53,213 nucleotides of DNA from an uncultured Mycobacteriales bacterium (GCA_902805565.1 CADCTP010000412.1:1-53213); one strand, 5' to 3'; counted from the stretch's first letter, positions 869 to 51,973 are shown. Notes: generated by a model from the letters alone, not told the origin. Numbers and translations: made by a program.

Positions 869-968
869 GGTGCCGCCCCTCGTTCGCCTCGTCGGTCGTT
901 CCGCTCCTCGGGCGACCGCGGGGCGAGCCGTCGTGCGGGGGCCCTGCGGTGCTCGCTCCCTCGTCGGC

Positions 969-3496: not shown

Positions 3497-3575
3497 GGGG
3501 GTCTTCCTACCCCGATCCTGTTACGGGGACTTTGCGTAACGTTCCAGTAATCCGCCTGCGGCACGCTGGAGGGCT

Positions 3576-29606: not shown

Positions 29607-29692
29607 CTGTCCTCCGGCTGGTCCCACCGAATGGTACGACCCGACCAGCGAGTACGTGTGGCGGGACGCCGGGCGTGGGCCACGATGACCGA

Positions 29693-32727: not shown

Positions 32728-32728
32728 G

Positions 32729-35371
32729 ATGACCGCCGCCGTGCCGCCCGTGCCGTACCCGGCGGGGTGGGAGGCCGATGTCGTCGCCTCCGACGGGGGC
32801 GTCGTGCACCTGCGGCCGATCCGGCCCGAGGACGCCGACGCGCTGGTCGCGTTCCACGGCCGGTTGTCGGAGCGGACCCGCTACCTGCGCTACTTCGGGC
32901 CGTACCCGCGGATCCCGGAGCGCGACCTGCACCACTTCACCCACGTCGACCACGTGGACCGGGTCGCGCTGGTGGCGGTGCTCGGCGACGACCTGATCGG
33001 CGTCGGCCGGTACGACCGGCTCGGCGCCCGGCCGGACGCGGAGGTCGCGTTCGTGGTCTCCGACGAGCACCAGGGCCGCGGCATCGGCTCGGTGCTGCTG
33101 GAGCACCTGGCCGCGGCCGCCCGGGAGCGCGGGATCCAGCGCTTCGTCGCCGAGGTCCTGGCCGAGAACGCGAAGATGATCCGCGTCTTCACCGACGCCG
33201 GCTACACCGCCGACTACAAGTACGACTCCGGCGTGGTCGAGCTGACCTTCCCGATCGCGCCGACCGAGCAGTCCCGGGCGGTGGCGGCCGAGCGGGAGCG
33301 CCGCGCCGAGGCCCGGTCGATCGAGCGGCTGCTCACCCCGGGCTCGGTCGCGGTGATCGGGGCCAGCACCGACCCGGCCAAGATCGGCCACGTCGTGTTC
33401 GCCAACCTCATGGCGTACGGCTTCGCCGGCCCGGTCTACCCGGTGCACCCAGGGGCCCGGCACGTCGGCGGCGTCCGGGCGTACCCGTCGGTGCTGGACG
33501 TGCCGGACGACGTCGACCTGGCCGTCGTCGCGGTGCCGGCGGCGATGGTCGGCGAGGTGGTCGAGCAGTGCGGGCGGAAGGGCGTCCGCGGGGTCGTGGT
33601 GGTCTCCGGCGGGTTCGGCGAGCGGGACGCCGCCGGCCGGGAGGCGGAGCGGCGGCTGGTCGCGGCGGCCCGGGCGCAGGGCATGCGGGTGGTCGGGCCG
33701 AACTGCCTGGGCGTCGTCAACGCCGACCCGGCGGTCCGGCTCAACGCGACGATCGCGCCGCTCGCGCCGGGGCTGGGCCGGGTCGGGTTCTTCTGCCAGT
33801 CCGGCGCGCTCGGCGTGGCCATCCTGGCCGCCGCCAGCCGGTGGGGACTGGGCCTGTCCACGTTCGTCAGCGCGGGCAACCGGGCCGACGTCAGCGGGAA
33901 CGACCTGCTGCAGTACTGGGAGCGCGACCCGGCCACCGACGTGGTCCTGCTCTACCTGGAGAGCTTCGGCAACCCGCGCAAGTTCGCCCGGCTGGCCCGG
34001 CGGGTCGCCCGCACCAAGCCGGTGGTCGCGGTGAAGACCGGCCGGTACGGCGCGTCCACCCCGGCGCTGGCGGCGCGGTCGGTGCCGGTGCCGGAGGAGC
34101 GCGTGCAGGCGCTGTTCGAGGACTCCGGCGTCATCCGGGTCGACACCCTGACCGAGCTGTTCGACGTCGCGCAGCTGCTGGCCTACCAGCCGCTGCCGAC
34201 CGGCTCCCGGGTCGCCACCGTGACGAACTCCTCCGCGCTCGGCGTGCTCGTCGCCGACGCCTGCCTGGCCTCCGGGCTGGACGTGACGGCGACCGTCGAT
34301 GTCGGGCCGGACGCGGACGTGCCGGCCTTCTCGGCCGGGGTGCGGGACGCGGTGCAGCGGGCCGACGCGGTGGTGGTGGTGTTCGCCCCGGCCCTGGCGA
34401 CCCCGGGGGACGACTACGCCGCCGCGCTGGCCGGGGTCGCCGCGACCTCCCGGGTGCCGGTGCTCACCACGTTCCTGGGGCACCGGGGCGTGCCGGTGCC
34501 GCTGCGTCGCTGCGGCCCCGGTGGGGAGGCGCTGCCGGGCTCGGTGCCGTCGTACCCGACGCCGGAGCGGGCGGTGCGGGCGCTGGCCTCCGCCGCCCGG
34601 TACGCCGCCTGGCGCCGCCGCCCCGCCGACACCTTCCCCGAGCTGCCCGGCGTCGACGTCGCCGCGGCGCGGGCCGTGGTGGAGACGGTGCGCGGCACCC
34701 GGCAGCTCACCCCGGCCGAGGCCGGCGCGCTGCTGGGCGCGTACGGGCTGCCGGTGCTGGAGCGGCGGGTCGCCGCCGACCCGGACGAGGCGGCTGCCGC
34801 CGCGGCCGAGCTGGGCTACCCGGTCGCCGCGAAGGCCACCGCGCCCGCCCTGCGGCACCGCCAGGACCTCGGCGCCGTCCGCCTGGACCTGGCCGACGAG
34901 GCCGCGGTACGGGCCGCGGTCGCCGCGCTGGCGGCCCCGGACGGCGCGCCGGTGGTCGTGCAGCGGATGGCCCCGCCCGGGGTGGCCACGGTGGTCGAGG
35001 TGCTCGACGACCCGTCGTTCGGCGCGCTGGTGTCCTTCGGCGTCGGCGGGCTGGCGACCGAGCTGTTCGGCGACCGGGCGTACGCGCCGGTGCCGCTGTC
35101 GGACCTGGACGCCGCCGAGCTGGTGGCCGCGCCGCGGGCGGCGCCGCTGCTGTCCGGCTACCGCGGCTCCGCGCCGGTGGACACCGACGCCCTGCGGGAC
35201 CTGCTGCTGCGGGTGTCCCGGCTGGCCGAGGACCTGCCCGAGGTGCTGGCGCTGGAGCTGAACCCGGTCCTGGTCAGCGGGACCGGCCTGTCGGTGCTGT
35301 CGGCGACGGTCACCGTGGGCCCGCCGACCGCCCGGGTCGACCCCGGCCCGCGCCGCCTCGGCGAGACCTGA
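32729..35371 (+). CDS. GNAT acetyltransferase fused to an ADP-forming acyl-CoA synthetase-like region (protein lysine acetyltransferase, Pat-type with N-terminal GNAT)
   Basis: 880 aa. The GNAT core is FVVSDEHQGRGIGSVLLEHLAAAARERG. It is followed by a CoA-binding fold (SVAVIGASTDPAKIGHVVF), a succinyl-CoA-ligase-like part and a C-terminal ATP-grasp-like part. The ATG lies 1 nt after the acuC stop. Confidence 0.85.
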   Translation: MTAAVPPVPYPAGWEADVVASDGGVVHLRPIRPEDADALVAFHGRLSERTRYLRYFGPYPRIPERDLHHFTHVDHVDRVALVAVLGDDLIGVGRYDRLGARPDAEVAFVVSDEHQGRGIGSVLLEHLAAAARERGIQRFVAEVLAENAKMIRVFTDAGYTADYKYDSGVVELTFPIAPTEQSRAVAAERERRAEARSIERLLTPGSVAVIGASTDPAKIGHVVFANLMAYGFAGPVYPVHPGARHVGGVRAYPSVLDVPDDVDLAVVAVPAAMVGEVVEQCGRKGVRGVVVVSGGFGERDAAGREAERRLVAAARAQGMRVVGPNCLGVVNADPAVRLNATIAPLAPGLGRVGFFCQSGALGVAILAAASRWGLGLSTFVSAGNRADVSGNDLLQYWERDPATDVVLLYLESFGNPRKFARLARRVARTKPVVAVKTGRYGASTPALAARSVPVPEERVQALFEDSGVIRVDTLTELFDVAQLLAYQPLPTGSRVATVTNSSALGVLVADACLASGLDVTATVDVGPDADVPAFSAGVRDAVQRADAVVVVFAPALATPGDDYAAALAGVAATSRVPVLTTFLGHRGVPVPLRRCGPGGEALPGSVPSYPTPERAVRALASAARYAAWRRRPADTFPELPGVDVAAARAVVETVRGTRQLTPAEAGALLGAYGLPVLERRVAADPDEAAAAAAELGYPVAAKATAPALRHRQDLGAVRLDLADEAAVRAAVAALAAPDGAPVVVQRMAPPGVATVVEVLDDPSFGALVSFGVGGLATELFGDRAYAPVPLSDLDAAELVAAPRAAPLLSGYRGSAPVDTDALRDLLLRVSRLAEDLPEVLALELNPVLVSGTGLSVLSATVTVGPPTARVDPGPRRLGET

Positions 35372-39694: not shown

Positions 39695-39978
39695 CCGGCC
39701 ATCCTGGCGGGTCGCCGCCCGACCGGCTCCGCAGGGGTTGCCGGGCTCCTCGACCCGGACCCCACCTCCGGTCGCCCGGGACGCCGTCCGCTCCGGCGGG
39801 TCGCGACGGTGTGTTCCGATCAGGAGAATGTCGTGACAGTGCGTCAATTTCCTTGTTGGCACGCCTGCGCCGTGACAACGTCGACATCCCCGAGTGCTTC
39901 GGTCAGTGGTGGCCCCCCGGCCGCTTCCCGCCGCACATCGCCCGGGTTCCCTGCTCGGCAACGACGAATGGAGCGCAC

Positions 39979-40110
39979 ATGCCGGAGAACGCCGCCGCGG
40001 TCGCCGCGGACATCAGCTCGGAGGCCCTCGACTTCGACGCGGTCAGCGAGGACCTCAACTTCGACGTCGTGAGCCTCAACGAGGAACTGGCGATGCACAA
40101 CCGCAGCTAG
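39979..40110 (+). CDS. candidate RiPP precursor peptide (43 aa)
   Basis: The ATG at 39979 has a GGAG 6 nt upstream (aatGGAGcgcacATG). The product is MPENAAAVAADISSEALDFDAVSEDLNFDVVSLNEELAMHNRS. All codons but one end in G or C. There are 10 acidic residues, and the only Arg and His are in the last four residues. It sits at the head of an enzyme operon. Confidence 0.6.
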   Translation: MPENAAAVAADISSEALDFDAVSEDLNFDVVSLNEELAMHNRS

Positions 40111-40133
40111 CCGGCCGCAGCTAGCCGACGTGA

Positions 40134-40161
40134 GGTCCCGGGCGTCCCGGCGCCCGGGACC
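40134..40161 (+). promoter_or_regulatory. perfect 11-bp GC stem-loop 24 nt after the peptide ORF (attenuator or mRNA-stabilising hairpin candidate)
   Basis: The arm ggtcccgggcg (40134-40144) and the arm cgcccgggacc (40151-40161) are exact reverse complements, with the loop tcccgg. No T-tract follows. Confidence 0.55.
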
Positions 40162-40218
40162 CCGCCCGACGAGACACGTGGAGTCCCCATCACCTCGGCG
40201 ACCATCTCCCTGGACGCG

Positions 40219-41553
40219 ATGCCGCTGCTGCGCGACCCGCAGTTGTCCGTTGACTACAGCGCCCGATTGGTGGCGCAGGGAGTGCTGAGGCCGCTGTTCG
40301 CCGCCGACGCGGGCACCGGGCCGGGCTGCGCCACGCGGGCGAGCCGCCTCGACGGCGGTCGCCGGTGGCGGGTCGTCGTGGACGACGGGCTGCGCTGGTC
40401 CGACGGACGCCGGCTGCACGCCGAGGATCTGGCGGCCGGACTCACGCACGCCGTCCGCGGTCGCGCCGCCGGCGTCCGCGCCTTCATCTCCGGCGCCGAC
40501 GCCGAGCCCCCGATCCGGATCGTCGACCCGGTGACCGTGGAGTACCGCTTCGACCGGCCGGTCGCCTTCGCGACCGAACTGCTGTCGTCGCCCGGTTTCG
40601 CTCCTCGCCGGCCGGGTGTCGACCGGCGCGGTCGGCCACTGTCGCTCGGGCCGTTCACCGTCGCGAGCTGGACGCCGGACCGGATCGTCCTGGAGCGCAC
40701 AGGTGCCGGTGCGGGACCGGCGCGGGTGGCCTTCGTGCACGTGCCCTCGGCCGCCGAGACGGTCCGCCGGTACGACGCGGGCGAACTGGACGCGACCTCA
40801 CCCACCGGGTTCGGCGTCGAGCAGGTCCTGGGGCTCGCCGGGCGGACGGACGTGGTGTCCGCACCGGTGGACATCTTCGGCTCCCTGGACCTCGGCCGGC
40901 GGGCGCCGCGCTCCTGGCTGGCCACCGCCGCTGCCCGGCGTGCGGTCTCCGGGCTGCTGGACCGCCACCGGTTCGCCGCCGTCACGGCCGAGCTGGCCGA
41001 GCCGTGGCACTGGCCGGGCTCCGCCGCCCTGGGGCCCGGCGCGCCCGAGGACCCGACCGCGCCGGCGGACCGCGTCACCGGCCCGCTGGACATCGCGTAC
41101 GCGGATTTCGCGCCGAACGCGGAGCTCGTCACAGAACTGGCCGGGCAGCTCGGCGACGCGTTCGGGGTGCTGGTGTCGACCACCCGGTTGTCGTTCGAGG
41201 ACTACGTCCGGGCGACGGTCTCCCGGGACTACTGCCTGCTGTACTCGCTCACCCTGCCGGCTTTCGGCCACCCGGCCGGCTCGCTGTCGGACTGGCGATC
41301 GACCGGCCCGGCCGCCCGACGCGGTGGGGTTGCCGACCAGGTGCTCGACGCCCTGCTGGACGCCGCTGAGAGCTGCCCGGACCCGGCCGCCGCCGACCCG
41401 CTGTGGGCGGACGTCGCGGCCCGGTGGTGCGCGCTGCTGCCGCGGATCCCGCTGGTCCGGGTACGGGCCGTGTTCCTGCGCGGCCGCCGGTTGCCCGGCC
41501 TGACCGTGACCCGGAGCGGATTGCTGGCCTGCGCGGGAGCGTCGGCGTCGTGA
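40219..41553 (+). CDS. solute-binding protein family 5 (SBP_bac_5)-like protein without a signal peptide
   Basis: 444 aa. Family-typical stretches are RWRVVVDDGLRWSDGRRLHAEDL, IRIVDPVTVEYRFDRPVAFATELL and GPFTVASWTPDRIVLER. The upstream in-frame extension runs into the TAG of the peptide ORF with no ATG/GTG/TTG, so no signal peptide or lipobox is possible. Confidence 0.7.
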   Translation: MPLLRDPQLSVDYSARLVAQGVLRPLFAADAGTGPGCATRASRLDGGRRWRVVVDDGLRWSDGRRLHAEDLAAGLTHAVRGRAAGVRAFISGADAEPPIRIVDPVTVEYRFDRPVAFATELLSSPGFAPRRPGVDRRGRPLSLGPFTVASWTPDRIVLERTGAGAGPARVAFVHVPSAAETVRRYDAGELDATSPTGFGVEQVLGLAGRTDVVSAPVDIFGSLDLGRRAPRSWLATAAARRAVSGLLDRHRFAAVTAELAEPWHWPGSAALGPGAPEDPTAPADRVTGPLDIAYADFAPNAELVTELAGQLGDAFGVLVSTTRLSFEDYVRATVSRDYCLLYSLTLPAFGHPAGSLSDWRSTGPAARRGGVADQVLDALLDAAESCPDPAAADPLWADVAARWCALLPRIPLVRVRAVFLRGRRLPGLTVTRSGLLACAGASAS

Positions 41554-41585: not shown

Positions 41586-43472
41586 ATGGACGGCACCGAC
41601 GCGGACGTCTGGCTCGTCTTCCCACCGTTGATCGAGACCAACTTCGGCAGCTTCTACCCGTCGACGGCGGTGCTGGCCGCCTACCTGCATGCGCAGGGCC
41701 TCCGTGCCGACCAGGCCGACCTCAACGAGGACTTCGCGGTCTGGCTGTTGCGCAGCACCGTCGACGGCGTCCCGCTGGCCGGCACCCCGCCGCCGGCGGA
41801 GTCGACCGCCGCGGCCGCCGGCCGCTGGCTCGCCAGGTCCTGGCACAAGCTGGTCGAGGAGGACGGGCGGCACGGCTTCGGCCCGTCCTCCGACTACGGT
41901 CATGTGCTGCAATTGCTCGCCCGGCATTACGTGGTGGATCCGGACGAGGGGGTGCTGGACCGCGATCCGGCCGCGGTCGAGGGCGCGGCTCTCTACCGGC
42001 AGTTCTACGAGCAGGCGGGACTCGCCACCCGGATGCCCCCGGCGACCGCGCTGATCGGGATCTCGGTCCCGATGGGTCCGCAGCTGCTGCCGGCTCTGGA
42101 GCTCGCCGAGCAGCTCAAGCGACTGCGGCCGGCGGCGCCGATCGTCCTCGGCGGTCCCGCGCTGAGCCTGATGAGTCCGCCAGAGATCGAGCGGCTGCTG
42201 GTCGGGTGGGACGCGGTGGACGCGGTGGTCCGGTTCGACGGCGAGATCCCGTTGCACCAGCTGGCCGTGCAGGCGACGACGGGCCAGTGGCGACCGGAGG
42301 TGGTGCCCGGGGTGTCCTGCCGGGCCGCCGGCACGGTCCGGCACGTCCCGCCCGGCGCCGGGCCCGCCATCAACCTGCTGCCGGTCCCGGCCTATCCGGC
42401 ACCGGCGCTCGCCGTGCTCGGCGACCCGGTCCTCGGCGTCACGCAGGCCCGCGGCTGCTACTGGGGCAAGTGCGACTACTGCGACTTCGTCGAGCTGTAC
42501 GACGGCAGCCCACCATTCCGCGGTCGCCGTCCGGACGGCTTCGTCGCCGAGCTGCGGACGCTGGCCGACACCTTCGGCGTGTCGAAGTTCAGCTTCATCA
42601 CCGAGTCGATCCCGCCGGCGTTCGCCCGCAGGGTGTGCGCCGACATCCTCGCGCAGGGCTTGGACCTGCGGTGGAGCTCGTTCGCGATGGTCGACCGCCG
42701 ATTCGATCGGCAGTTGCTGGCCCTCATGGTCGAGGCCGGCTGCGAGTTCCTGACCATTGGCATGGAGACGACCGTCACCCGGGTGCTCAAGCTGGTGCAC
42801 AAGTCGGCCGACCGGGAGGAGAACCTCCGGTTCCTGGCCGACGCCCGCGATGTCGGGTTGCCACTCGTGATCAACTTGATACCGGACCTGCCCACCACCA
42901 CGTTCGACGAGGCGATGGGCGCGCTGGCCGACGTGCGGGAGTTCGCTCCGGGACTGCGGGCGGTGGCGGTGTTCCCCTTCGAGCCGACCCGCTCCTCCCA
43001 GGTCGGCCGGACACCCGAGTTGTTCGGTCTGGACGTCGGCGTGGCCGCGACCACCACCGGCCAGGCCGAGTACGCCCTCAACCACCTGGTCAGCAACGAC
43101 CCGGCGATGACCCCGGCGGAGCGGGCGGAGGTGCACCGCCAGTACCGGGCGTTCGCCGAGACGGTCAACGGCCGGCCGGCCGTCCTCCGGGCGTACGGTT
43201 CGGACGAGCTGCTCCGGGTGGCGGTGGAGGACCTGGACCTGCTCGACAGCGAGGCCGGGCTGGTCTGCACCAATCTCCGCACCCGGGCCCGGGCGGTGAT
43301 CCCGGAGCGGGTGGCCGGAATGGTCCGCCCGCACCTCGCCGGCCGGCCGTTCTCGCCGGCGACCATGCACCCGTCCCTCAGCCCGACGGGCGCGGCCCGG
43401 GTGCTCGCGAGCCTGGACCGGGTCGCGATGCTCGCCCCGCTCGGCCCCGGTGCGCGTGCCGCCGGTGGGTGA
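41586..43472 (+). CDS. B12-binding domain radical SAM enzyme (class B)
   Basis: The ATG at 41586 follows GAGGAGGAG. The gene is 628 aa. The N-terminal Rossmann-like segment VWLVFPPLIETNFGSFYPSTAVLAAYLHAQG is typical of B12-binding rSAM proteins. The cluster motif is ARGCYWGKCDYCDF (42456-42482). Later stretches are FLTIGMET and INLIPDLP. Confidence 0.85.
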   Translation: MDGTDADVWLVFPPLIETNFGSFYPSTAVLAAYLHAQGLRADQADLNEDFAVWLLRSTVDGVPLAGTPPPAESTAAAAGRWLARSWHKLVEEDGRHGFGPSSDYGHVLQLLARHYVVDPDEGVLDRDPAAVEGAALYRQFYEQAGLATRMPPATALIGISVPMGPQLLPALELAEQLKRLRPAAPIVLGGPALSLMSPPEIERLLVGWDAVDAVVRFDGEIPLHQLAVQATTGQWRPEVVPGVSCRAAGTVRHVPPGAGPAINLLPVPAYPAPALAVLGDPVLGVTQARGCYWGKCDYCDFVELYDGSPPFRGRRPDGFVAELRTLADTFGVSKFSFITESIPPAFARRVCADILAQGLDLRWSSFAMVDRRFDRQLLALMVEAGCEFLTIGMETTVTRVLKLVHKSADREENLRFLADARDVGLPLVINLIPDLPTTTFDEAMGALADVREFAPGLRAVAVFPFEPTRSSQVGRTPELFGLDVGVAATTTGQAEYALNHLVSNDPAMTPAERAEVHRQYRAFAETVNGRPAVLRAYGSDELLRVAVEDLDLLDSEAGLVCTNLRTRARAVIPERVAGMVRPHLAGRPFSPATMHPSLSPTGAARVLASLDRVAMLAPLGPGARAAGG

Positions 43473-44499
43473 GCCCGTCCTCCGGTTGCTGGACACGGTC
43501 GAGGTCGCCCCGGCGGTCCACGAGGAGGAGCCGACCCTGCTGGTCCGCGGCGACCGGATGCTGCGGATCCGCCGGCCGAGCCGGGCCGTGGCGGAGGCGC
43601 TGTCGATGCTCCGGCACGGTCTGGCCGAACCCGACATCACTGCCCCTGACGTACGGCGCCTGGTGGACGAGCTGTCCGGGCTCGGCTGGCTGACCGCGGA
43701 GCCGCCCTGGCCCGGTTCCGCGGCCGGGTGGGACCGGCAGGTCGGCTGGTGGTCGACGCTCACCGCCGACGGTCAGGCCGCGCAGCGCCGCGTGGCCGCC
43801 GCCGACGTGGCCGTCCTGGGGCTGGGCGGGATCGGCGCGCCGGTCGCGCAGCACCTCGCGGCCGGCGGCGTCGGCAGGCTCCGCCTGATCGACCCCGACG
43901 TGGTCGAGCCGCACAACCTCAACCGGCAGTACCTGTACGGCCGCGCCGACGTCGGCCGGGCCAAGGTGGACGCGGCGGCGGACGGGCTCGGCCGCCTGAC
44001 CGACACCGTCGGCCTGCAGCGGACCCGGCTCCGGGTCACCACCCCGGCGGACCTCGACGTGCTGCGCGGCAAGGTGGACCTGCTGGTGGTCGCGGCCGAC
44101 CGGCCCGCCGACCTGATGGACACCGTCTGGGCCTGGGCGGCGCCTCGGGGGGTGCCGGTCCTCGGTTCCGGGGTGGGCCTGGGCACCGGCTACTGGGGGC
44201 CGCTGCTCGACCCGCGCCGGGGCCACTGCTGGCCGTGCACCGAGCGGGCCCGGCGGCACCGGCTGAGCGCCGACGAACGCCGGCTGGAGGACCGCGGCGG
44301 CCCCACGCCGTACTCCTTCGGCCCGACGAACGCGATCATCGCCGACCATGTCGCCCGGGACGGGCTGCTGTTCCTCGCGCTCGGCCGGTGCATCAGCCTG
44401 GACCGTCGGGTCCTGCTCGACGTGGTCGGGATCCCGGCCGGCGGGGCGCCGCAGGCCGCCGGGTCTCCCGGATGTCGGCACACCGGGGGAACAGCATGA
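43450..44499 (+). CDS. E1/ThiF-family adenylating enzyme with a PqqD-like (RRE-like) N-terminal extension
   Basis: The nucleotide-binding motif is VAVLGLGGIGAPVAQHLAAGGVG (43819-43836 encodes GLGGIG), followed by RLIDPDVVEPHNLNRQYLY, VVAADRPAD and a CxxC (GHCWPC). N-terminal residues 10-85 (...RAVAEALSMLRHGLAEPDITAPDVRRLVDELSGLGWL) resemble PqqD/RRE. The start is GTG 43450 or 43465, and both overlap the rSAM 3' end. Confidence 0.8.
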   Translation: MRVPPVGEPVLRLLDTVEVAPAVHEEEPTLLVRGDRMLRIRRPSRAVAEALSMLRHGLAEPDITAPDVRRLVDELSGLGWLTAEPPWPGSAAGWDRQVGWWSTLTADGQAAQRRVAAADVAVLGLGGIGAPVAQHLAAGGVGRLRLIDPDVVEPHNLNRQYLYGRADVGRAKVDAAADGLGRLTDTVGLQRTRLRVTTPADLDVLRGKVDLLVVAADRPADLMDTVWAWAAPRGVPVLGSGVGLGTGYWGPLLDPRRGHCWPCTERARRHRLSADERRLEDRGGPTPYSFGPTNAIIADHVARDGLLFLALGRCISLDRRVLLDVVGIPAGGAPQAAGSPGCRHTGGTA

Positions 44500-46253
44500 T
44501 CGTCCTGGGGCTGTCGGCGCTGTACCACGACTCGGCGTGCGCGGTCTTCCGCGACGGCCGGCTGGTCGCGGCCGCGCAGGAGGAGCGGTTCACCCGGCGC
44601 CGGTTCGACCCGGCGATGCCGGTCCGGGCGGTCCGGGCCTGCCTGCGCGACGCCGGCCTCGGGATCGGCGACGTGGACCACGTCGCGTACTACGAGGACC
44701 CGGTGGGCAAGTTGAGCCGGCAACTGTGGATGGGCCTGCCCGCAGTCCCGGATGCGTCCCGGCGAACGCTGTTCCGGTTGGATGCGCGCCGCCCGGCCCG
44801 GCAGATCGAGGAACTGCTCGGGTATCCGGGTCCGGTCACCTTCGTCCCGCACCACGAGTCGCACGCGGCGAGCGCCTTCCACCAGTCCGGCTTCTCCGAC
44901 GCCGCGCTGTTCACGGCGGACGCGGTCGGCGAGTGGGCCACCACCAGCTACGGCACGGGCGGACCGAACCGGTTCGAGCTCTTCGAGCAGGTCGACTTCC
45001 CGCACTCGCTAGGCATCCTCTACAGCGCGGTCACGTCGTTCCTCGGCTTCGCGGTCAACAGCGACGAGTACAAGGTGATGGGGCTCGCGCCGTACGGGAC
45101 GCCGCGGTACGCCGACCGGCTGCGCGGGCTGCTGACCGACCTGCCGCGTGGGCAGTTCCGGTTGGACCAGGACTGCTTCGACCTCAGTGGGCGGTCGCCG
45201 ATGTACACGGCGGCGCTGGGCGAGCTGCTCGGCGCGGAGCCCCGGGAGCCGGAGTCCGCGCTGTCCGCCGCACACTCCGATCTGGCGGCCAGCGTGCAGC
45301 TCGTACTGGAGGACATCCTGCTGGCCAAGCTCCGCTTCCTGCACGCCGAAACCGGACTCGGGCGGCTCTGCTACGCCGGCGGGGTCGCGCTGAACTGCGT
45401 CGCCAACCGGGTGATCCGGGAGCGGGGCCCGTTCGCCGAGGTCTTCGTGCAGCCGGCGGCCGGGGACGCCGGCGCCGCGATCGGAGCGGCCGCGCTGGTC
45501 AGTGCCCGGCTCGGCGCGGGGGTCCGGCCGGAGCGGCTGACCGACGTACGGCTCGGACCGGCGCCCGACCTCGGGCCGGTGGCGGCCTGGCTGGCCGCGG
45601 CAGGCGTGCCGTTCGAGGCCCACACGGACGATGAGGCGGGACTGGTCGGGCGGGCCGCCGAGGAGTTGGCGGGGGGAGCGGTGCTGGGGTGGTTCCAAGG
45701 ACGGATGGAGTTCGGCCCGCGGGCGCTCGGGGCCCGCTCCATCCTCGCCGATCCGCGCCGTGGTGACATGCGCGACCACATCAACGCGCTGGTCAAGAAG
45801 CGCGAGGCGTTCAGGCCGTTCGCGCCGGCGGTGGTGGCCGAGCGTGCCGGCGAGTTCTTCGGGCTGGCCGGCGACTCGCCGTTCATGCTCTTCACCGCCG
45901 ATGTCCGCGAGCCGGCCGCGCTGCCCGCGGTCACCCACGTCGACGGCAGCGCTCGCGTGCAGACGGTGGACCGGGCGGTGGATCCGCGGTTCCATGCGCT
46001 GCTCACCGCCTTCGGTCGCCGCACCGGGTTCCCGGTGCTCCTCAACACCTCCTTCAACATGCGCGGCGAGCCGATCGTCGCGACCCCGGCCGACGCGCTG
46101 GCCTGCTTCGTACGGTCCCGGCTGGACGTGCTCGTCCTCGGGGACCTGGTCGTCCGGGCGGCGGACCTTCCCGCGCACTGGGCCGGCCTGGTGGACCAGC
46201 AGTTGCCGTACCAGCTCCCGACCCTGGACCGCGATGTCTACTCCTTCCTCTGA
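44496..46253 (+). CDS. NodU/CmcH-family carbamoyltransferase
   Basis: The ATG at 44496 overlaps the ThiF-like stop (ATGA). The N-terminus is MIVLGLSALYHDSACAVFRDGRLVAAAQEERFTRRRFD. Other typical stretches are HHESHAASAF, the YAGGVALNCVAN context and the C-terminal LLNTSFNMRGEPIVATPADALACF. Confidence 0.9.
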   Translation: MIVLGLSALYHDSACAVFRDGRLVAAAQEERFTRRRFDPAMPVRAVRACLRDAGLGIGDVDHVAYYEDPVGKLSRQLWMGLPAVPDASRRTLFRLDARRPARQIEELLGYPGPVTFVPHHESHAASAFHQSGFSDAALFTADAVGEWATTSYGTGGPNRFELFEQVDFPHSLGILYSAVTSFLGFAVNSDEYKVMGLAPYGTPRYADRLRGLLTDLPRGQFRLDQDCFDLSGRSPMYTAALGELLGAEPREPESALSAAHSDLAASVQLVLEDILLAKLRFLHAETGLGRLCYAGGVALNCVANRVIRERGPFAEVFVQPAAGDAGAAIGAAALVSARLGAGVRPERLTDVRLGPAPDLGPVAAWLAAAGVPFEAHTDDEAGLVGRAAEELAGGAVLGWFQGRMEFGPRALGARSILADPRRGDMRDHINALVKKREAFRPFAPAVVAERAGEFFGLAGDSPFMLFTADVREPAALPAVTHVDGSARVQTVDRAVDPRFHALLTAFGRRTGFPVLLNTSFNMRGEPIVATPADALACFVRSRLDVLVLGDLVVRAADLPAHWAGLVDQQLPYQLPTLDRDVYSFL

Positions 46254-48249
46254 GCCGGGTCGGCGGCCGGCCGGCCGGCACCGCCGCCGTGTCGACCGGC
46301 TCGCCCGCCTGCTCGCCGACGAGCGAGGCACCGAGCTGCTCGCCGAACTGCAGAAGCTCGGCCTCGAGGCCGGCCCCACCGGGTCCCGGCCGGCCGCCGG
46401 CGCCGCGCCGGCGGTGGCCGCGGTCGGTGTCTGGTGGGTGCTCCCCACCCCGTCCGGTCCGGAGCTGCGTCGACGGGAGCTGCCCGCGGAGGAGCTGCGC
46501 GGGTGGGCCGACGTCGAGCACGTCCCTGCCGCCGGGGAGGCGATACGGGTGGTGTTGCTGGGCGAGTCCACCGCCCGCGGCTTCCTGCTGGACCCGGTGT
46601 TCACCCCGGCCGTGGCGCTGCAGGACCGGCTGGATGCCGGCGGCGCGTACCAGGTCGTGGACCTCGCCCACGTCGGCGCGGACGCACGCGACCTGACCGA
46701 GGTCGCATCGGCGCTGCCGGCGCTGGAGCCGGACGTGGTGGTGGTGCTCGCCGGCAACAACTGGGCCCGGCCGCGGCACACCCCGGGGTCGCTCGACCTG
46801 CTGGCCGGCGCGCTGCGGGAGGGCGGCTACCCGGCGCTGCGCCGTGCGCACGCCGAGGGCGTCGTGGCACCGGGGATCGAGCGGGCGCTGGACGCGCTCG
46901 CGGCAGTGCCCGCGGCGCGGGTGGTCGTGGTGGTGCCCGAGTTCAACACCGGCGGTTGGGCGCCGGACCCGGAGCTGGAGCTGCCACCGCTGGCGCCGGC
47001 CGACCTGCGATCGTGGACGGCGCTGCGCAGGGCGGCCGAGACCGCGCTGGCGACCGGCGACCTGGCCGGGGTGCGCGCCGCGACGACTGCCATGACCCGG
47101 CTGGACGCCGGCACCAGCCCGGTCCCGGGCCGGCTGCGGGCGCTCGCCGCCACCGATCCGGACGAGGTCCGTACCGCCCTGGAGGAGTCCCGGGACGCGG
47201 GGACCGGCCTACTCACCACGCACACCCCGCGGCTCACCGCCGACGTCCGGGCCCGGTTGCTCGCCGGTGCCCGCCGCCGCGGCTTCGACGTGCTCGACCT
47301 CGCCCCGGTGCTGCGGGCCCACCCGGACGCTCCCTGCCCGGACCCCGACCTGTTCCTGGACTACTGCCACCTCAGCGCCCGGGGGACGGCCACGGTGACA
47401 GCGGCGGTGGCGGATGTGCTGACCGGTCGGCCGCCCGGTACGACCCCACCGGCGGGCTTGCCGACGCCGGACGACTCGGCGATCGCCGACCTGCTGGCCG
47501 CCGTCCACAACAGCTACTACGGCCAGTCGCGGGAGCGGGTCGAGGAACTGGTGCGGCGCGCGGTCAAGGAGAGTCCGGCGGGCCGGGAGTTCGCTGTCGC
47601 GTTGCGTGACCTGCTCGGTAGTGCGGGACCGGTGTGGACCTCACCCACGCTGCAGGTCCTGCTCCGGCGACCCCATGCCGCCCGCTACCTCGCGCCGCTG
47701 CTGTCCCGGGAGGCCGGGACGCTCGGGGTGTGGGGCCTGCGCGCGGCACTGCTGGCCGAGCTGGGCCCGCCCCCGACCACGCCGCCCCCACCCACGGTCG
47801 TGGATCTGCTCCGCGCCGCCGAACAGGGCCTGCTGGACGGCGCTTTCCGCTCGGTCACCCAGCAGCCGGAACGGTCGTTCTTCCGCGCGTTCGGAGTCGA
47901 GTCGCATTTCGGCTTCGCCCTTCCCGCTGCCAACGCGTCCGGGCGTATTCGCGTGACCGGTCGGGTACCGGCCGCGCTCGATCCGGCCGCACCGGTGCAC
48001 GTCCTGGTGAACGACTGCCCGATCGGCACCGTTCCGGCCGGTCCGGGCTGGAGTGCCGCGGACATTGTCGTGCCGCCCGGGGTGCTCCGGCCGGGAATTA
48101 ACGATCTGATGATCCGATGGCCGACGGGCGGCGCGGACTGGAAGAACCGGCAGCTCACAGACGCGCGGGCACTGGCCTGCGGGGAGTACCCGACGGTGCT
48201 CGCCGTTCAGGGTGAGGTCTTCGATATCCTGTTGGAACTCGACCGGTGA
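46234..48249 (+). CDS. SGNH-hydrolase-fold protein with a large uncharacterised C-terminal region
   Basis: The ATG at 46234 overlaps the carbamoyltransferase by 20 nt (alternative GTG 46291). SGNH-like block I is IRVVLLGESTARG, block III is VLAGNNW, and block V is LDYCHLS. The C-terminal region of about 300 aa has no motif I recognise. Confidence 0.65.
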   Translation: MSTPSSEPGRRPAGRHRRRVDRLARLLADERGTELLAELQKLGLEAGPTGSRPAAGAAPAVAAVGVWWVLPTPSGPELRRRELPAEELRGWADVEHVPAAGEAIRVVLLGESTARGFLLDPVFTPAVALQDRLDAGGAYQVVDLAHVGADARDLTEVASALPALEPDVVVVLAGNNWARPRHTPGSLDLLAGALREGGYPALRRAHAEGVVAPGIERALDALAAVPAARVVVVVPEFNTGGWAPDPELELPPLAPADLRSWTALRRAAETALATGDLAGVRAATTAMTRLDAGTSPVPGRLRALAATDPDEVRTALEESRDAGTGLLTTHTPRLTADVRARLLAGARRRGFDVLDLAPVLRAHPDAPCPDPDLFLDYCHLSARGTATVTAAVADVLTGRPPGTTPPAGLPTPDDSAIADLLAAVHNSYYGQSRERVEELVRRAVKESPAGREFAVALRDLLGSAGPVWTSPTLQVLLRRPHAARYLAPLLSREAGTLGVWGLRAALLAELGPPPTTPPPPTVVDLLRAAEQGLLDGAFRSVTQQPERSFFRAFGVESHFGFALPAANASGRIRVTGRVPAALDPAAPVHVLVNDCPIGTVPAGPGWSAADIVVPPGVLRPGINDLMIRWPTGGADWKNRQLTDARALACGEYPTVLAVQGEVFDILLELDR

Positions 48250-49571
48250 CTGTTCCGGAGAAGAGTCGGACAAGGGACGGGGAACGCTTCATGCGCCGGT
48301 CGTCCCTGCGGGGAACGGGCTTCTTCACGATCTGGTTGGGCGAGTCCCTCTCGCTCGTCGGGGCCCAGGTGACGTTCTTCGCGTTACCGCTGGTCGCCAT
48401 TCTCGCGCTGGACGCGGACGCGCTCGGGATGGGTCTGCTCACGGCGGCCGGATCGCTCGCCGTGCTGCTGCTCGCCCCGTCGATCGGGGTCTGGGCCGAC
48501 CACCACGAGCGCCGCACCACCATGGTGGTGGCGAACCTTGCCCGGGGCCTGCTGCTGGGCACCGTCCCTCTCGCGTACGTCCTCGACGCGCTCACCCTGC
48601 CGCTGCTGATCGCGGTGGCCTTCGGGGTCGGGGCGCTGACCCTCCTGTTCGACAGCGCCATGTCCTCGTACGTGCCGGCCCTGGTCGGACCGAAGCGGCT
48701 GGTGGCCGCGAACTCCTGGATGCAGAGCAGCATCTCGGTGGCGGACACCGCCGGCCCGGGCCTGGCCGGACTGCTGGTGCAGGTGCTCGGGGCGCCGATC
48801 GCGGTCCTCGCCGACGCGCTGAGCTACCTCGCCAGCACGGTGGCGCTGCTCGCGTCGCCCCGGGTCGGCAAGCCCCCGGAGCCGGCCGAGCGGGAGTTGC
48901 ACTGGGCCGCGATCAAGCAGGGCCTGCGGATCGTGCTCACCGACCGGATCCAGCGCCCGCTGGCGCTCGCCGCCGGTCACTTCAACCTTTTCACCTCCAT
49001 GTTCTTCACGCTCTACCTGCTCTTCCTGGTACGGACGCTGGACTTCAGCCCGCTGCTGATCGGCCTGCTGAACATCGCAGGTGGCGTGGCCGGCCTGACC
49101 GGCGCCGGGATCAGCGCCCGGCTCGCCCGTCGCTTCGGCTACGGCCCGGTGCTCACGGTCGTCTACGCCCTGCCCGGGGTCGCCGCACTGCTGGTGCCGC
49201 TGGCCGGCCGGGTCGGCCCGGTGTCCGGCGCGCTGCTCGTCGCCGCGTCCAGCGCCCTGTGGTCCGGCTCGGTGATCGTCAACCTGGTGCTGAGCGAGTC
49301 GATCAAGCAGGCGCTGGTGCCGCACCACCTGCTCGGTCGGGCCACGTCGATCATCCGGTTCATCAGCTTCGGGGTGGAGCCGATCGGGGCGCTGCTGGGT
49401 GCCGCGCTGGTCGGGCTCGGCCTCAGCCTCGGCGGCACCCTGGCCGTGGCGTCCATCGGGGTCGGTAGCAGCGCGGTGTGGCTGCTGGCCAGCGGCGTCG
49501 CCAAGTTGCAGGACCCGGTGTCGCCCGCACCCGCGCCGACGCCGGCCGGCACCGCACCCGAGGAGGTCTGA
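48246..49571 (+). CDS. MFS transporter (EntS/MFS_3-like efflux type)
   Basis: The GTG at 48246 overlaps the upstream stop (GTGA). The gene is 441 aa with about 12 hydrophobic segments. The N-terminal pattern FFTIWLGESLSLVGAQVTFFALPLVA and the stretch WADHHERRTTMVVANL are typical of the MFS_3 group. Confidence 0.85.
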   Translation: MTVPEKSRTRDGERFMRRSSLRGTGFFTIWLGESLSLVGAQVTFFALPLVAILALDADALGMGLLTAAGSLAVLLLAPSIGVWADHHERRTTMVVANLARGLLLGTVPLAYVLDALTLPLLIAVAFGVGALTLLFDSAMSSYVPALVGPKRLVAANSWMQSSISVADTAGPGLAGLLVQVLGAPIAVLADALSYLASTVALLASPRVGKPPEPAERELHWAAIKQGLRIVLTDRIQRPLALAAGHFNLFTSMFFTLYLLFLVRTLDFSPLLIGLLNIAGGVAGLTGAGISARLARRFGYGPVLTVVYALPGVAALLVPLAGRVGPVSGALLVAASSALWSGSVIVNLVLSESIKQALVPHHLLGRATSIIRFISFGVEPIGALLGAALVGLGLSLGGTLAVASIGVGSSAVWLLASGVAKLQDPVSPAPAPTPAGTAPEEV

Positions 49572-51205
49572 TGGGCTACATCGACGTGCAGAGCGTCGGC
49601 TACACGCTGTCCGACGGCCGCGTCCTGTTCGACGACGTGTCCTTCCGGGTCGGGGAGGGCAGCAAGACCGCCCTGATCGGCGCCAACGGCACCGGCAAGA
49701 CCACGCTGCTGCGGATGATCGCCGACGACCTGCGGCCGAGCACCGGCACCATCGCCCGCAAGGGCGGACTCGGGGTCATGCGGCAGTTCATCGGCTCCGT
49801 CCGGGACGGCACCGAGGTGCAGGACCTGCTGCTCGGGCTGTCCGGTCCGGACCTCCGCGGCAGCGGCGCCCGCCTGGCCCGGACGGAGCTGGCGATGATG
49901 GAGCGCGACGACGAGCCGGCCCAGATGGCGTACGCGCAGGCGCTGGCGGACTGGGGCGACGCCGGCGGCTACGAGGCGGAGACGCTCTGGGACGTCTGCA
50001 CCACGCTCGCGCTGGGCCAGTCCTTCGACGCGTGCCGTTACCGGAAGGTCGCGACCCTGTCCGGCGGCGAGCAGAAGCGGCTGGCGCTGGAGGTCCTGCT
50101 GCGCGGCACCGACCAGGTGCTGCTGCTCGACGAGCCGGACAACTACCTCGACGTGCCCGGCAAGCGCTGGCTGGAACAGGCGCTGGCCGAGTCGCCGAAG
50201 ACGGTCCTGCTGGTCAGTCACGACCGGGAGTTGCTGGCCAACACCACCTCCCGGCTGGTCACCCTGGAGGCACACGGCGCGTGGGTGCACGGCGGCGCCA
50301 CCAGCCGGGCCACCTGGGAGAGCTACCCGAAGGCCCGGCAGGACCGCCGCGAGCGGCTGGCCGAGCTGCACCGGCGCTGGGACGAGGAGCACGAGCGGCT
50401 GCGCCAGCTGGTCCTCACGCTCCGGGAACAGGCCAAGATCAGCCCGGCGATGGCGTCGAAGCTGGCCGCGACCGAGACCCGGCTCGCCCGGTTCGAAGCG
50501 TCCCCGCGGCCGGCCGAGCAGCCGGTCGAGCAGAAGGTCACGATGCGGCTGCGCGGCGGCCGTACCGGGGTGCGGGCGCTGGCCTGCGAGTCCCTCGAGC
50601 TCACCGGTCTCATGCGGCCCTTCGACCTGGCCGTGGACTACGGGGAGCGCATCGCGGTGCTGGGCAGCAACGGCTCCGGCAAGTCGCACTTCCTCCGCCT
50701 GCTCGCCGGCCAGCCGGTCGCGCACACCGGGGCCGTACGGCTCGGCGCCCGGGTGGTGCCCGGCTGGTTCGCCCAGACCCACGAGCAGCCCCAACTCGCC
50801 GACCGGACGGTGGTGGAGATCCTGCACCGCGGCGAGGGCGGGCGGTCCGGACTCGACCGGGGCGCTGCGATGGGTGCGCTGCGCCGCTACGAGTTGGATG
50901 TCGCCGCGGACCAGACCTTCCCGTCGCTGTCCGGAGGCCAGCAGGCGCGGCTGCAGGTGCTGCTGCTGGAGCTGTCCGGCTGCACGATGCTGCTGCTGGA
51001 CGAGCCGACGGACAACCTGGACCTGGCCTCCGCAGAGGCGCTGGAGCAGGGGCTGCAGGGTTTCGACGGCACGGTGCTGGTGGTCACGCACGATCGCTGG
51101 TTCGCCCGGGGTTTCGAGCGCTTCCTGGTCTTCGGCGCCGACGGCCGCGTGTACGAGTCGAGCGAGCCGGTGTGGGACGAGGCGAGGGTCGCCCGGGCCC
51201 GGTGA
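49571..51205 (+). CDS. ABC-F family ATPase (two ABC domains, no TM domain)
   Basis: The ATG at 49571 shares its A with the MFS stop (TGATG) and follows GAGGAGG. Walker A motifs are GANGTGKTT and GSNGSGKSH. Signature motifs are LSGGEQKRLAL and LSGGQQARLQV. The inter-domain linker is charged and helical. Confidence 0.9.
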   Translation: MGYIDVQSVGYTLSDGRVLFDDVSFRVGEGSKTALIGANGTGKTTLLRMIADDLRPSTGTIARKGGLGVMRQFIGSVRDGTEVQDLLLGLSGPDLRGSGARLARTELAMMERDDEPAQMAYAQALADWGDAGGYEAETLWDVCTTLALGQSFDACRYRKVATLSGGEQKRLALEVLLRGTDQVLLLDEPDNYLDVPGKRWLEQALAESPKTVLLVSHDRELLANTTSRLVTLEAHGAWVHGGATSRATWESYPKARQDRRERLAELHRRWDEEHERLRQLVLTLREQAKISPAMASKLAATETRLARFEASPRPAEQPVEQKVTMRLRGGRTGVRALACESLELTGLMRPFDLAVDYGERIAVLGSNGSGKSHFLRLLAGQPVAHTGAVRLGARVVPGWFAQTHEQPQLADRTVVEILHRGEGGRSGLDRGAAMGALRRYELDVAADQTFPSLSGGQQARLQVLLLELSGCTMLLLDEPTDNLDLASAEALEQGLQGFDGTVLVVTHDRWFARGFERFLVFGADGRVYESSEPVWDEARVARAR

Positions 51206-51250: not shown

Positions 51251-51973
51251 ATGACCGCAGCAGTCACCGACGCGACCGTCCGGGCGGCCGCGGCCGCGCA
51301 CCGCCGGGCGTTGATCGAGCAGTTCACCGGTCCGGTGGTCGCCGAGGCGGTCCGGCGGATCGGCCCGGCCGGCAGGGACATCCTCACCCCGATGTCCCTG
51401 CTGCCGCCCGAGCGGACCGAGCCGCTGCTGGCCTGCCTGAGCGAGCAGCAGGCGTGGCGGCAGGAGAAGTGGCTGATCTTCCCGGACGAGAGCGTGCGGA
51501 TGTGCTCCGACGAGGAGTTCGCCGCCGCCGCGCCGCACACGCGCTTCTCCTACAACGACTGCCTGCGCTCGCTGCCGAAGGACGCCTACCCGGTGCGCGG
51601 CCTGCTGTCGGCGATGGAGAGCCCCGAGGTGGCCGCCGCGCTGTCCGAGGCGTACGGGGCGGGGATCGAGCTCAAGGGCATCGACATGGCCCGCTACACC
51701 GAGGGCCACTACCTGCGCCGGCACGCGGACACCTTCGCCGACCGGCGCTTCGGGTTCATCTTCTTCGTGTCCGACGGCTGGGTGCCGGGCAGCGGCGGCG
51801 AGCTCGTCGTGGAGGCGCCGAGCGGCGAGGCGCGGGTCGCCTACCCGGTGCGCGGCGACGTGGCGCTGCTCCGGATCAGCCCGGGCTTCCAGCACGAGGT
51901 CTGCCAGGTCCGCTCCGCCACCTGGACCCGCTACGTGCTGTCGATCCACTTCGGCATCCGCGCCGGGGGCTGA
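51251..51973 (+). CDS. 2OG-Fe(II) oxygenase superfamily protein
   Basis: 240 aa. The HxD is in GHYLRRHADTF, the distal His is in GFQHEV, and an Arg lies in TRYVLSIHF. These are consistent with the prolyl-hydroxylase-like 2OG oxygenase fold. Confidence 0.65.
   Translation: MTAAVTDATVRAAAAAHRRALIEQFTGPVVAEAVRRIGPAGRDILTPMSLLPPERTEPLLACLSEQQAWRQEKWLIFPDESVRMCSDEEFAAAAPHTRFSYNDCLRSLPKDAYPVRGLLSAMESPEVAAALSEAYGAGIELKGIDMARYTEGHYLRRHADTFADRRFGFIFFVSDGWVPGSGGELVVEAPSGEARVAYPVRGDVALLRISPGFQHEVCQVRSATWTRYVLSIHFGIRAGG

Follow-up and report, generated by a model that had tools for sequence, protein, structure and literature searches.

A predicted family of ThiF-like RiPP adenylases with an OppA-like partner and precursor peptides ending in Arg-Cys, Arg-Ser or Arg-Thr

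Introduction

ThiF-like (E1-like) enzymes that act on RiPPs (peptides synthesized by the ribosome and modified after translation) are known to carry out five reactions, those of MccB, PaaA, GrcB, EnfB and IndF (PMC12250964, PMC12596934, PMC12150305). MccB makes a peptidyl-nucleotide, and PaaA cyclizes its substrate from Glu side chains (PMC12250964, PMC12596934, PMC12150305). GrcB, which requires ATP and Mg, joins Glu35 to Cys39 as a thiolactone on a peptide ending in Gly-Arg-Cys (PMC12250964, PMC12596934). EnfB generates a C-terminal imide or amidation, and IndF carries out indolylamide macrocyclization (PMC12250964, PMC12150305). RiPP ThiF-like enzymes are still few but their number is growing. 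According to reviews, most of their sequence space is unexplored (PMC12596934).

Here we describe a ThiF-like enzyme gene at positions 43450-44499 (+ strand) of a 53,213-nucleotide contig from an uncultured Mycobacteriales bacterium (GCA_902805565.1, CADCTP010000412.1:1-53213). The contig has a G+C content of about 75% and comes from a biocrust metagenome; its whole length is referred to below as the window. An earlier, sequence-only reading of the window had taken the gene product for an MccB/PaaA-style enzyme whose peptide substrate does not end in Asn, and saw in this a possible new chemistry for the family. That last claim was overstated, as ThiF-like RiPP enzymes with non-Asn substrates are already known (PaaA, GrcB, EnfB and IndF). 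The reading had also passed over an OppA-like partner, the common ending of the precursors and the extent of the operon to 52973, with its B12-binding radical SAM, carbamoyltransferase, ABC-F, 2OG oxygenase and aldo-keto reductase genes. ThiF-like RiPP adenylases as such were therefore familiar; judged from sequence comparison, what is apparently new is a large clade of them, an Arg-Cys/Ser/Thr rule for their substrates and an OppA-like partner protein. No published description of a ThiF-like enzyme combined with an SBP_bac_5 (SBP5)-like protein and an Arg-Cys/Ser/Thr precursor was found in the searchable literature, subscription journals lying outside its coverage.

Results

The ThiF-like protein has 349 residues if translated from 43450 and 344 residues if translated from the GTG at 43465. 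Three in-frame GTG codons (43450, 43456 and 43465) are candidate starts, all within the end of the preceding radical S-adenosylmethionine (SAM) enzyme gene, whose stop codon is at 43470-43472. Because homologues open with M-A-E-P-x-x-R-L-L-D, the GTG at 43465, with the product MGEPVLRLLD..., is favored over 43450. The stop codon overlaps the ATG of the following carbamoyltransferase gene as ATGA, and translational coupling of the gene inside an operon headed by a 43-residue precursor peptide is strongly supported. Pfam ThiF covers residues 108-309 with an E-value of 1.3e-32, which rules out a chance match. The closest sequences in the PDB are MccB (E 2e-19, residues 107-321) and then PaaA (6e-15); ubiquitin-type E1, MoeB and ThiF proteins score between 1e-18 and 1e-13 over shorter stretches than MccB. 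Among 5.8 billion proteins searched, about 35 homologues from actinobacteria came up at 40-70% identity, their sole annotation being 'ThiF family adenylyltransferase'.

All four adenylation motifs named in the sequence-only reading were located: GLGGIG at residue 124, DPDVVEPHNLNRQ at 148, AADRPAD at 215 and CWPC at 260. Invariant in an alignment of 39 sequences are G124, G126, G129, D148, D150, N156-L157-N158-R159, D167, K172 and A216-D217-x-P219, and Q160 is kept in at least 90% of them. R159, K172 and D217 stand opposite R157, K170 and D214 of MccB in the PDB sequence alignments. With the ATP/Mg residues invariant across the 39 sequences, the adenylation site is under purifying selection and is not degenerate, in line with the intact motifs noted in the sequence-only reading. 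Of the zinc ligands, C260-x-x-C263 corresponds to the first CxxC in MccB, and the other pair is probably a C-terminal Cys-x-His, with CxC in other subgroups.

An AlphaFold2 model built from the 39-sequence family alignment reached a predicted local distance difference test score (pLDDT) of 91.5 and a predicted template modeling score (pTM) of 0.88, with disorder limited to the last 18 residues. In the model an N-terminal domain (approximately residues 10-77; strands 10-13, 18-20, 29-33 and 36-40, helices 45-54 and 66-77) precedes the Rossmann domain. In a Foldseek search of the PDB, 24 MccB chains came out on top (E 1e-23 to 4e-21, 322-344 columns, query TM-score (TMq) about 0.7 (0.71)), followed by PaaA (E 1e-19, 327 columns), whereas ThiF and MoeB covered only about 234 columns, corresponding to the C-terminal domain alone. 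The model thus superposes on MccB and PaaA over its full length and bears out the proposed kinship with these enzymes. As to the accompanying proposal of a PqqD-like N-terminal clamp, the predicted fold aligns with the clamp domains of MccB and PaaA, but Pfam PqqD found no match in the N-domain by sequence, even at E 10, so that the label of RiPP recognition element (RRE) or peptide clamp derives solely from the predicted structure. The model strongly supports a winged-helix peptide clamp ahead of an intact E1-type ATP/Mg site. It supports the view of the protein as a RiPP ThiF-like adenylase, an RRE-E1 fusion predicted to adenylate a peptide carboxylate.

When 1.84 billion cluster representatives were searched with the family profile, 1,220 proteins reached E<=1e-30; of these, the top 150 all scored at least 196 bits, most of them over nearly the whole profile. 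Against the family hidden Markov model (HMM), the characterized enzymes scored 117 (MccB), 86 (EnfB), 86 (PaaA), 79 (GrcB) and 45 bits (IndF), values that are approximate because the five sequences were read by optical character recognition (OCR) from the supplementary alignment of PMC12150305. The difference between at most 117 and at least 196 bits, which leaves even MccB outside the family, marks a distinct, large clade without any characterized enzyme. A crude neighbor-joining tree, computed from the same OCR-derived sequences, without support values and without loci L029 and L033, agrees with a distinct clade and places GrcB outside it. The family comprises at least 150 representatives at 50% identity, found in actinomycetes, low-GC bacteria and a Pseudomonas-like island.

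The precursor peptide gene (39979-40110, +) encodes a 43-residue peptide, MPENAAAVAADISSEALDFDAVSEDLNFDVVSLNEELAMHNRS (MPENAAAV...LAMHNRS), and has GGAG 6 nt upstream of its ATG. In its acidic leader the motif L(D/N)FDxVS is duplicated, and the peptide ends in Arg42-Ser43. The duplication lies at 40024-40074 (residues 16-32, LDFDAVSE / LNFDVVS); relatives have one copy. Sixteen database peptides match the precursor, and homologous peptides occupy the same position in related loci L001, L002, L010-L014 and L017. The peptide ending in ...HNRS, as described in the sequence-only reading, is real: the AGC codon of Ser43 is identical in one independent DNA run and two RNA runs. This agreement, together with Ser- and Thr-ended precursors in other lineages, identifies Ser43 as a natural variant and not an error.

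More generally, a short precursor gene lies one to four genes from the ThiF-like gene in the window and in L001, L002, L010-L015, L017, L022, L025, L032 and L073-L075. With residues numbered from the C-terminus so that Arg42 of the window precursor is -1, Asn41 -2 and Met39 -4, Arg at -1 is invariant and the final residue is always Cys, Ser or Thr across roughly 30 related precursors. Given this invariance, the native C-terminus is itself the conserved feature; the only property common to the three final residues is a beta-heteroatom nucleophile. Cys is the commonest, with about 21 precursors ending in Arg-Cys. Among these are the ends VAVNRC, VTVNRC and AFVNRC (L001, L002, L010, L012, L017 and another 12 peptides from databases), AMVHRC, AMAHRC and AVVHRC (L011, L013, L014 and others), IIARRC (L015, ...MRLIIARRC), AVFSRC (L032) and SITVRC, the last on the 18-residue L022 peptide MQIKKMNKSSLESITVRC, whose gene has a strong ribosome-binding site and a terminator. 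Arg-Ser ends occur in the window (AMHNRS), in both precursor copies of L073 (SLKHRS and SLRHRS) and in L075 (VMSHRS), and Arg-Thr ends in L074 (AMVHRT) and in two tandem copies in L025 (GLIQRT). The residue at -2 may be N, H, R, V, S, Q or T and is never Gly. Exposure of Asn41 by trimming, as entertained in the sequence-only reading, is contradicted by this pattern, in which the residue aligned with Asn41 varies and the end that would be removed does not. An acidic residue is present between -4 and -11 in all precursor types but one, and the L022 and L074 precursors, which are short and basic, each retain a single one, a Glu. The Glu35-Glu36 pair of the window precursor, which precedes a Leu, is not conserved in relatives (NEQL, NTEL, NHEL, SDYL). 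A candidate precursor in L021, MDTTSSCTGSVRC, was rejected because it overlaps the ThiF-like gene in another frame.

Between the precursor and the radical SAM enzyme lies a gene (40219-41553, +) for a 444-residue protein resembling the peptide-binding proteins OppA and DppA (Pfam SBP_bac_5, E 1.9e-20). The SBP5-like proteins have no signal peptide, their sequences opening directly at the mature fold. An AlphaFold2 model of the window protein (pLDDT 83.5) gave MppA, OppA and DppA as best Foldseek matches (TMq 0.74-0.81). Also among the matches was PDB 2WOP, OppA2 from the clavulanic acid cluster, which provides a precedent for a cluster-encoded, arginine-binding protein of the SBP5 fold. In contrast to OppA2 and to OppA, DppA and MppA, the window protein has neither a signal peptide nor adjacent ABC permease genes, and it belongs to a narrow, divergent family that is once fused to the ThiF-like enzyme. 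Just 15 database matches were found, and those of known context all belong to this cluster family. Across phyla, SBP5-like and major facilitator superfamily (MFS) genes stand beside the ThiF-like gene in nearly every related locus with sufficient flanking sequence. The fusion, P0128 (L073, 8001-10592), is a single 863-residue polypeptide with a ThiF domain at 112-340 and SBP_bac_5 at 424-783, which argues that the two proteins act together in the cytoplasm. In L073, two precursors of about 90 residues (ends KHRS and RHRS) precede P0128, and two radical SAM genes, a 2-oxoglutarate (2OG) oxygenase gene and an acetyltransferase gene follow it.

Related loci show which parts of the cluster are constant. 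By tblastn, the full order from precursor to aldo-keto reductase is kept in Streptomyces sp. 8L (L001) and Streptomyces sp. NPDC005898 (L002), and parts of it in an Actinomadura genome (L010) and in metagenome contigs L016, L017 and L019. Micromonospora L011, Saccharothrix L013 and Streptomyces L014 keep the precursor, SBP5-like, radical SAM, ThiF-like and MFS genes, and their accessory genes are replaced by a second B12-binding radical SAM enzyme with DUF5825, methyltransferases and an ABC-ATPase-like protein. The radical SAM-DUF5825 pair corresponds to the MpcBC beta-C-methylation system of clavusporin (bioRxiv 10.1101/2024.01.23.576971), a link that accounts for the second radical SAM enzyme in L011 and L013 but not for the core enzymes. 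On the low-GC contig L022, the ThiF-like protein, which is 24% identical and scores 248 bits with the family HMM, is encoded in the order ThiF-MFS-SBP5-B12 radical SAM. Loci L025-L028 and L074 encode ThiF-like, SBP5-like and MFS proteins, and their radical SAM enzyme is replaced by a Cupin_8/JmjC protein, as is that of L032. L032 (1732-8042) comprises the AVFSRC precursor, a Cupin_8/JmjC protein, a 447-residue protein without Pfam match, an ABC-ATPase-like protein, the ThiF-like enzyme and an MFS protein. This locus is a lower-GC island whose flank, with AraC and an efflux outer-membrane factor, is Pseudomonas-like, which suggests horizontal spread of the core module. Since distant loci keep the ThiF-like, SBP5-like and MFS genes, these three constitute the conserved core. 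The B12-binding radical SAM enzyme is a frequent but replaceable tailoring enzyme, and the carbamoyltransferase, oxygenases and ATP-binding cassette F (ABC-F) protein are variable accessories.

Two further genes were observed in some of these loci. A divergent paralogue of the B12-binding radical SAM enzyme, about 50% identical to the main one, is accompanied by its own small peptide in L001 (3436-5930, -) and L017 (3465-5636, -); these peptides have the leader-like motif REPLDN(I/T)LA(L/A)VH in common, but their C-termini are ...NYRA and ...LTEA instead of Arg-Cys. The other gene, seen in L014 (12383-13693), L013 (17925-19313), L017 (18132-19514) and L032 (4376-5599) but not in the window, encodes a protein of about 410-460 residues with a single weak ABC-ATPase domain.

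In biocrust metatranscriptomes, the precursor and its untranslated regions are covered by contigs that match the window exactly from 39886 or 39902 to 40220, at a word depth of 12.7-18.9; two contigs stop at 40220 and one extends to 40348, the range with the latter included being 12.7-23.7. An abundant precursor transcript is the usual pattern for RiPPs. The radical SAM and MFS genes are represented by sparse RNA contigs at a depth of 2-4, the downstream biosynthetic genes overall by 0-4, and among these sparse, low-depth contigs over the operon enzymes none lies clearly within the ThiF-like gene. A perfect, G+C-rich 12-bp hairpin separates the precursor from the SBP5-like gene (40134-40161, +; stem 40134-40145 / 40150-40161 by RNA folding). 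It may stabilize or attenuate the transcript; the z-score of the 121-nt fold around it is only -1.6. The 9-nt string CGCAGCTAG occurs twice here, at the precursor stop codon and again 5 nt further on.

The genes of the operon are all on the + strand, in the order precursor, SBP5-like, radical SAM, ThiF-like, carbamoyltransferase, GDSL-like, MFS, ABC-F, 2OG oxygenase and aldo-keto reductase, ending at 52973. The radical SAM enzyme (41586-43472, 628 residues, Pfam Radical_SAM and B12-binding) starts at ATG 41586 with a strong ribosome-binding site. Its best NCBIfam matches, ApyD and rSAM_ocin_1 at about 81 bits, are far under the family cut-offs, and it is likely a RiPP C-methyltransferase-type tailoring enzyme. 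A preprint on a sinefungin B12-binding radical SAM enzyme was considered as a parallel and set aside, the substrates there being small molecules. The NodU/CmcH-type carbamoyltransferase (44496-46253; Carbam_trans_N 6e-65, Carbam_trans_C 3e-69), an accessory tailoring enzyme, is encoded in L001, L002, L010, L012, L016, L017 and L019; L011, L014 and L022 lack it. Always traveling with it by synteny is a 671-residue protein (46234-48249) with a weak GDSL/SGNH-like N-terminal region (Lipase_GDSL_2 2.5e-6, under cut-off). PDB sequence searches gave no match for this protein and nothing useful for the radical SAM enzyme.

The MFS efflux gene noted in the sequence-only reading is present at 48246-49571 (MFS_1/MFS_3 by Pfam and NCBIfam) and encodes a probable exporter. 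It is followed by an ABC-F ATPase (49571-51205) with two ABC domains (Pfam ABC_tran twice) and no membrane domain. Its best NCBIfam match, 'ribosomal protection-like ABC-F', reaches 263 bits against a cut-off of 380, and its best PDB match is YbiT. It is co-located in at least 10 loci (among them L001, L002, L010-L013, L016, L017, L019 and the distant L074). The protein may protect the producer's ribosome as a means of self-resistance, and a translation-factor role for the acidic precursor is also possible; with the score under cut-off and YbiT best in the PDB, translation as the target of the product is a hypothesis and not a finding. The operon closes with a 2OG-Fe(II) oxygenase (51251-51973; 2OG-FeII_Oxy_3 3.9e-11), an accessory tailoring enzyme syntenic in L001, L002 and L010, and an aldo-keto reductase (51975-52973; Aldo_ket_red 1.4e-67), the last syntenic gene, conserved in position in L001 and L002 and also found in L011.

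Upstream of the operon are housekeeping genes for Dtd, a CDO-like cupin and a DUF7059 methyltransferase on the opposite strand, with a sigma-70 factor and IdeR further off. The scan of window genes took in 21 further candidate open reading frames (ORFs) from 1-32.7 kb, picked by a filter on G+C content at third codon positions (GC3), and left aside 27.0-28.9 kb and the ORF 32585-35371; no YcaO, ThiS or MoaD was found among the genes scanned, and the genes called in related loci likewise included no YcaO. Neither a stand-alone RRE nor an Rgg protein was seen in the window cluster, and Pfam and NCBIfam scans found no MccD/E/F-like gene and no trimming peptidase in the operon. At the other end of the window, two transglutaminase-like genes flank a gene for a circularly permuted ATP-grasp protein (1940-3520, -; the three genes together 26-4454), which is unrelated to the enzyme described here; an ATP-grasp gene with two transglutaminase-like genes is a commonly conserved trio.

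Discussion

The ThiF-like enzyme is best explained as the class-defining modifier of an uncharacterized RiPP family, and each of its described relatives resembles it in part. MccB of Escherichia coli microcin C7 (PDB 3H5N, 3H9J, 6OM4) is its best sequence and fold match, with the same clamp-E1 architecture, the conserved Arg, Lys and Asp, the first CxxC and an MFS exporter in its operon. However, identity to MccB is only about 22-25%, and MccB requires a substrate with a C-terminal Asn, which yields a peptidyl-AMP phosphoramidate, whereas the peptides here end in Arg-Cys, Arg-Ser or Arg-Thr; the mcc operon has no OppA-like partner, and the window operon has no MccD/E/F. PaaA of the pantocin A pathway (PDB 5FF5), the second-best structural match, is likewise an RRE-E1 fusion, encoded with PaaB (a 2OG-type oxygenase) and PaaC (MFS). 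It adenylates the side-chain carboxylates of an internal Glu-Glu and makes a bicyclic product from a Glu-Glu-Asn core, whereas Glu35-Glu36 of the window precursor is followed by Leu and is unconserved.

GrcB from the GRC RaS-RiPP of Streptococcus pneumoniae is similar in other respects, being an RRE-ThiF protein with a substrate that ends in Gly-Arg-Cys and with radical SAM enzymes and a transporter in its cluster (Johnson et al., JACS 2024, as summarized in PMC12250964 and PMC12596934). The side chain of the terminal Cys is the nucleophile in its ATP/Mg-dependent dehydration (PMC12250964, PMC12596934). GrcB, however, links a Glu at -4, a position occupied in the window family by Met, Ala, Thr, Phe, Val, Ile or Leu, or by Lys in L073, with acids at -6 to -11 and never a donor Glu at -4. 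The GRC cluster also differs in its GrcC/GrcD radical SAM enzymes, which are not B12-binding, its stand-alone RRE, its Rgg/SHP control and its lack of an SBP5-like partner. EnfB and IndF have the RRE-ThiF architecture and adenylate the alpha-carboxylate, which is captured by a peptide nucleophile at the cost of a single ATP (PMC12250964, PMC12150305). Their substrates differ in motif (WWIVI; a Trp...Ile C-terminus), and their Lactobacillales clusters contain neither SBP5-like nor B12-binding radical SAM proteins. ThiF and MoeB have the Rossmann-type E1 fold and nucleotide motifs but no clamp, and they need ThiS or MoaD. The E1-like docking proteins of thiazole/oxazole-modified microcin (TOMM) pathways have the E1 fold in common with the enzyme but accompany YcaO, and their ATP site is often degenerate.

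By analogy with GrcB, we tentatively favor the capture of an adenylated Glu or Asp side chain by the side chain of the terminal Ser, Cys or Thr. The clamp would bind the acidic leader in the LDFD..V.LNEEL region, and the E1 domain would adenylate, at the expense of ATP, a carboxylate of the C-terminal core. Attack of the Ser43 beta-hydroxyl (a thiol or hydroxyl in relatives) on the acyl-AMP would release AMP and form an ester, so that Glu35 or Glu36 would be joined to Ser43 in an 8- or 9-residue macrolactone, or in a thiolactone in Cys-ended relatives. The OppA-like partner might hold the Arg-Ser tail. Decoration of the core by the B12-binding radical SAM enzyme, the 2OG oxygenase and the carbamoyltransferase would come afterwards. 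Export of the product would fall to the MFS protein, and the producer's ribosome may be shielded by the ABC-F protein. A side-chain macrolactone is favored because the Arg-Cys terminus is common with GrcA, Cys, Ser and Thr interchange, and one Glu is kept in L022 and L074. Several observations weigh against it. The distance of the acid from the C-terminus varies (-7 and/or -8 in actinomycetes, -6 in L022, L025 and L029, -10 in L032 and -11 in L074), the actinomycete acid shifts between NEQL and NTEL or NHEL, and the L015-type precursor has no acidic residue within 20 residues; these acids may belong merely to the leader. MccB, which activates an alpha-carboxylate, is nearer to the family profile than GrcB (117 versus 79 bits), and most E1-like enzymes activate the C-terminal alpha-carboxylate. 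Finally, the ABC-F protein scores under the curated cut-offs for ribosomal protection.

Adenylation of the alpha-carboxylate of Ser43, as in MccB, EnfB, IndF, ThiF and MoeB, is a possible alternative that we judge somewhat less probable. If the residue's own beta-hydroxyl or thiol captured the acyl-AMP, a beta-lactone or beta-thiolactone would arise at the C-terminus. Capture by a backbone amide would instead yield a cyclic imide or N-acyl diketopiperazine, which could free a small Arg-Ser- or Arg-Cys-derived molecule, and a third option is an external nucleophile presented by the OppA-like partner. This carboxylate is the only one at an invariant position relative to Arg-Cys/Ser/Thr, the L015-type precursor has no nearby acidic side chain to offer instead, and MccB is the closest characterized relative by profile. 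EnfB and IndF form their imide and indolylamide from a C-terminal acyl-AMP (PMC12250964, PMC12150305), and core clusters encode no protease, which fits a chemistry-driven release. Against such a route, four-membered (thio)lactones made on peptides by E1-like enzymes have no known precedent, and the lone Glu kept in short basic precursors would be unexplained. Chemistry beyond the five described reactions is doubtful on present evidence. It would place the core reaction in a large cross-phylum class defined by an RRE-E1 adenylase, an obligate cytoplasmic OppA-like partner that is sometimes fused to it and Arg-Cys/Ser/Thr precursors, with a product that inhibits translation and is marked by the recurrent ABC-F gene; candidate forms of this sixth reaction would be a beta-lactone or beta-thiolactone warhead or the chemistry-driven release of a small Arg-Xaa-derived molecule.

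The other explanations are far less probable. Formation of a thiocarboxylate at the peptide C-terminus, or use of the peptide as a sulfur carrier in ThiF/MoeB-type chemistry, is very unlikely. The ThiF-family fold, the NCBIfam ThiF/MoeB models as top partial matches and a tandem rhodanese gene at 29498-30544 could be cited in its favor, but those matches are all far under their cut-offs (85 versus 437 bits, for example), and the rhodanese gene lies 13 kb away among housekeeping genes, with none annotated in related loci with called genes. ThiF and MoeB have no N-terminal clamp, no ThiS/MoaD-like Gly-Gly protein occurs among the scanned window genes, and an acidic leader with a variable core is typical of a RiPP, all of which separates the enzyme from sulfur-carrier activators, as had been anticipated. 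A microcin C-type pathway, with trimming to Asn41 and a peptidyl-nucleotide phosphoramidate formed via a succinimide, is in our view scarcely credible despite the MFS gene and the rank of MccB among structural and sequence matches: the variable -2 position excludes Asn-based succinimide or phosphoramidate chemistry, the residues to be trimmed are the most conserved of the peptide, the profile gap to MccB is wide, and the operon holds no peptidase or MccD/E/F-like gene for the purpose. Equally implausible is a non-catalytic docking role like that of the TOMM 'C' protein, with another enzyme cyclizing the terminus. Azoline-forming systems do use Cys, Ser and Thr, and the NCBIfam TOMM leader-binding domain gives a weak match (E 0.0025), yet the invariant ATP/Mg residues argue for catalysis, and the absence of YcaO from the scanned window genes and from related loci with called genes, which agrees with the sequence-only reading, speaks against it.

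Whichever carboxylate is activated, a periplasmic peptide-binding fold has apparently been reused inside the cell as the partner of a RiPP adenylase, and the precursor gene is expressed in situ, in biocrust. With GrcB-like chemistry, (thio)lactone RiPPs would extend from streptococcal signaling peptides to soil actinomycetes, and stable lactones would come from the Ser and Thr variants; with any other chemistry, there would be a sixth ThiF-like reaction still to be described. A concrete hypothesis for the target of the product, namely translation, comes from the co-conserved ABC-F protein.

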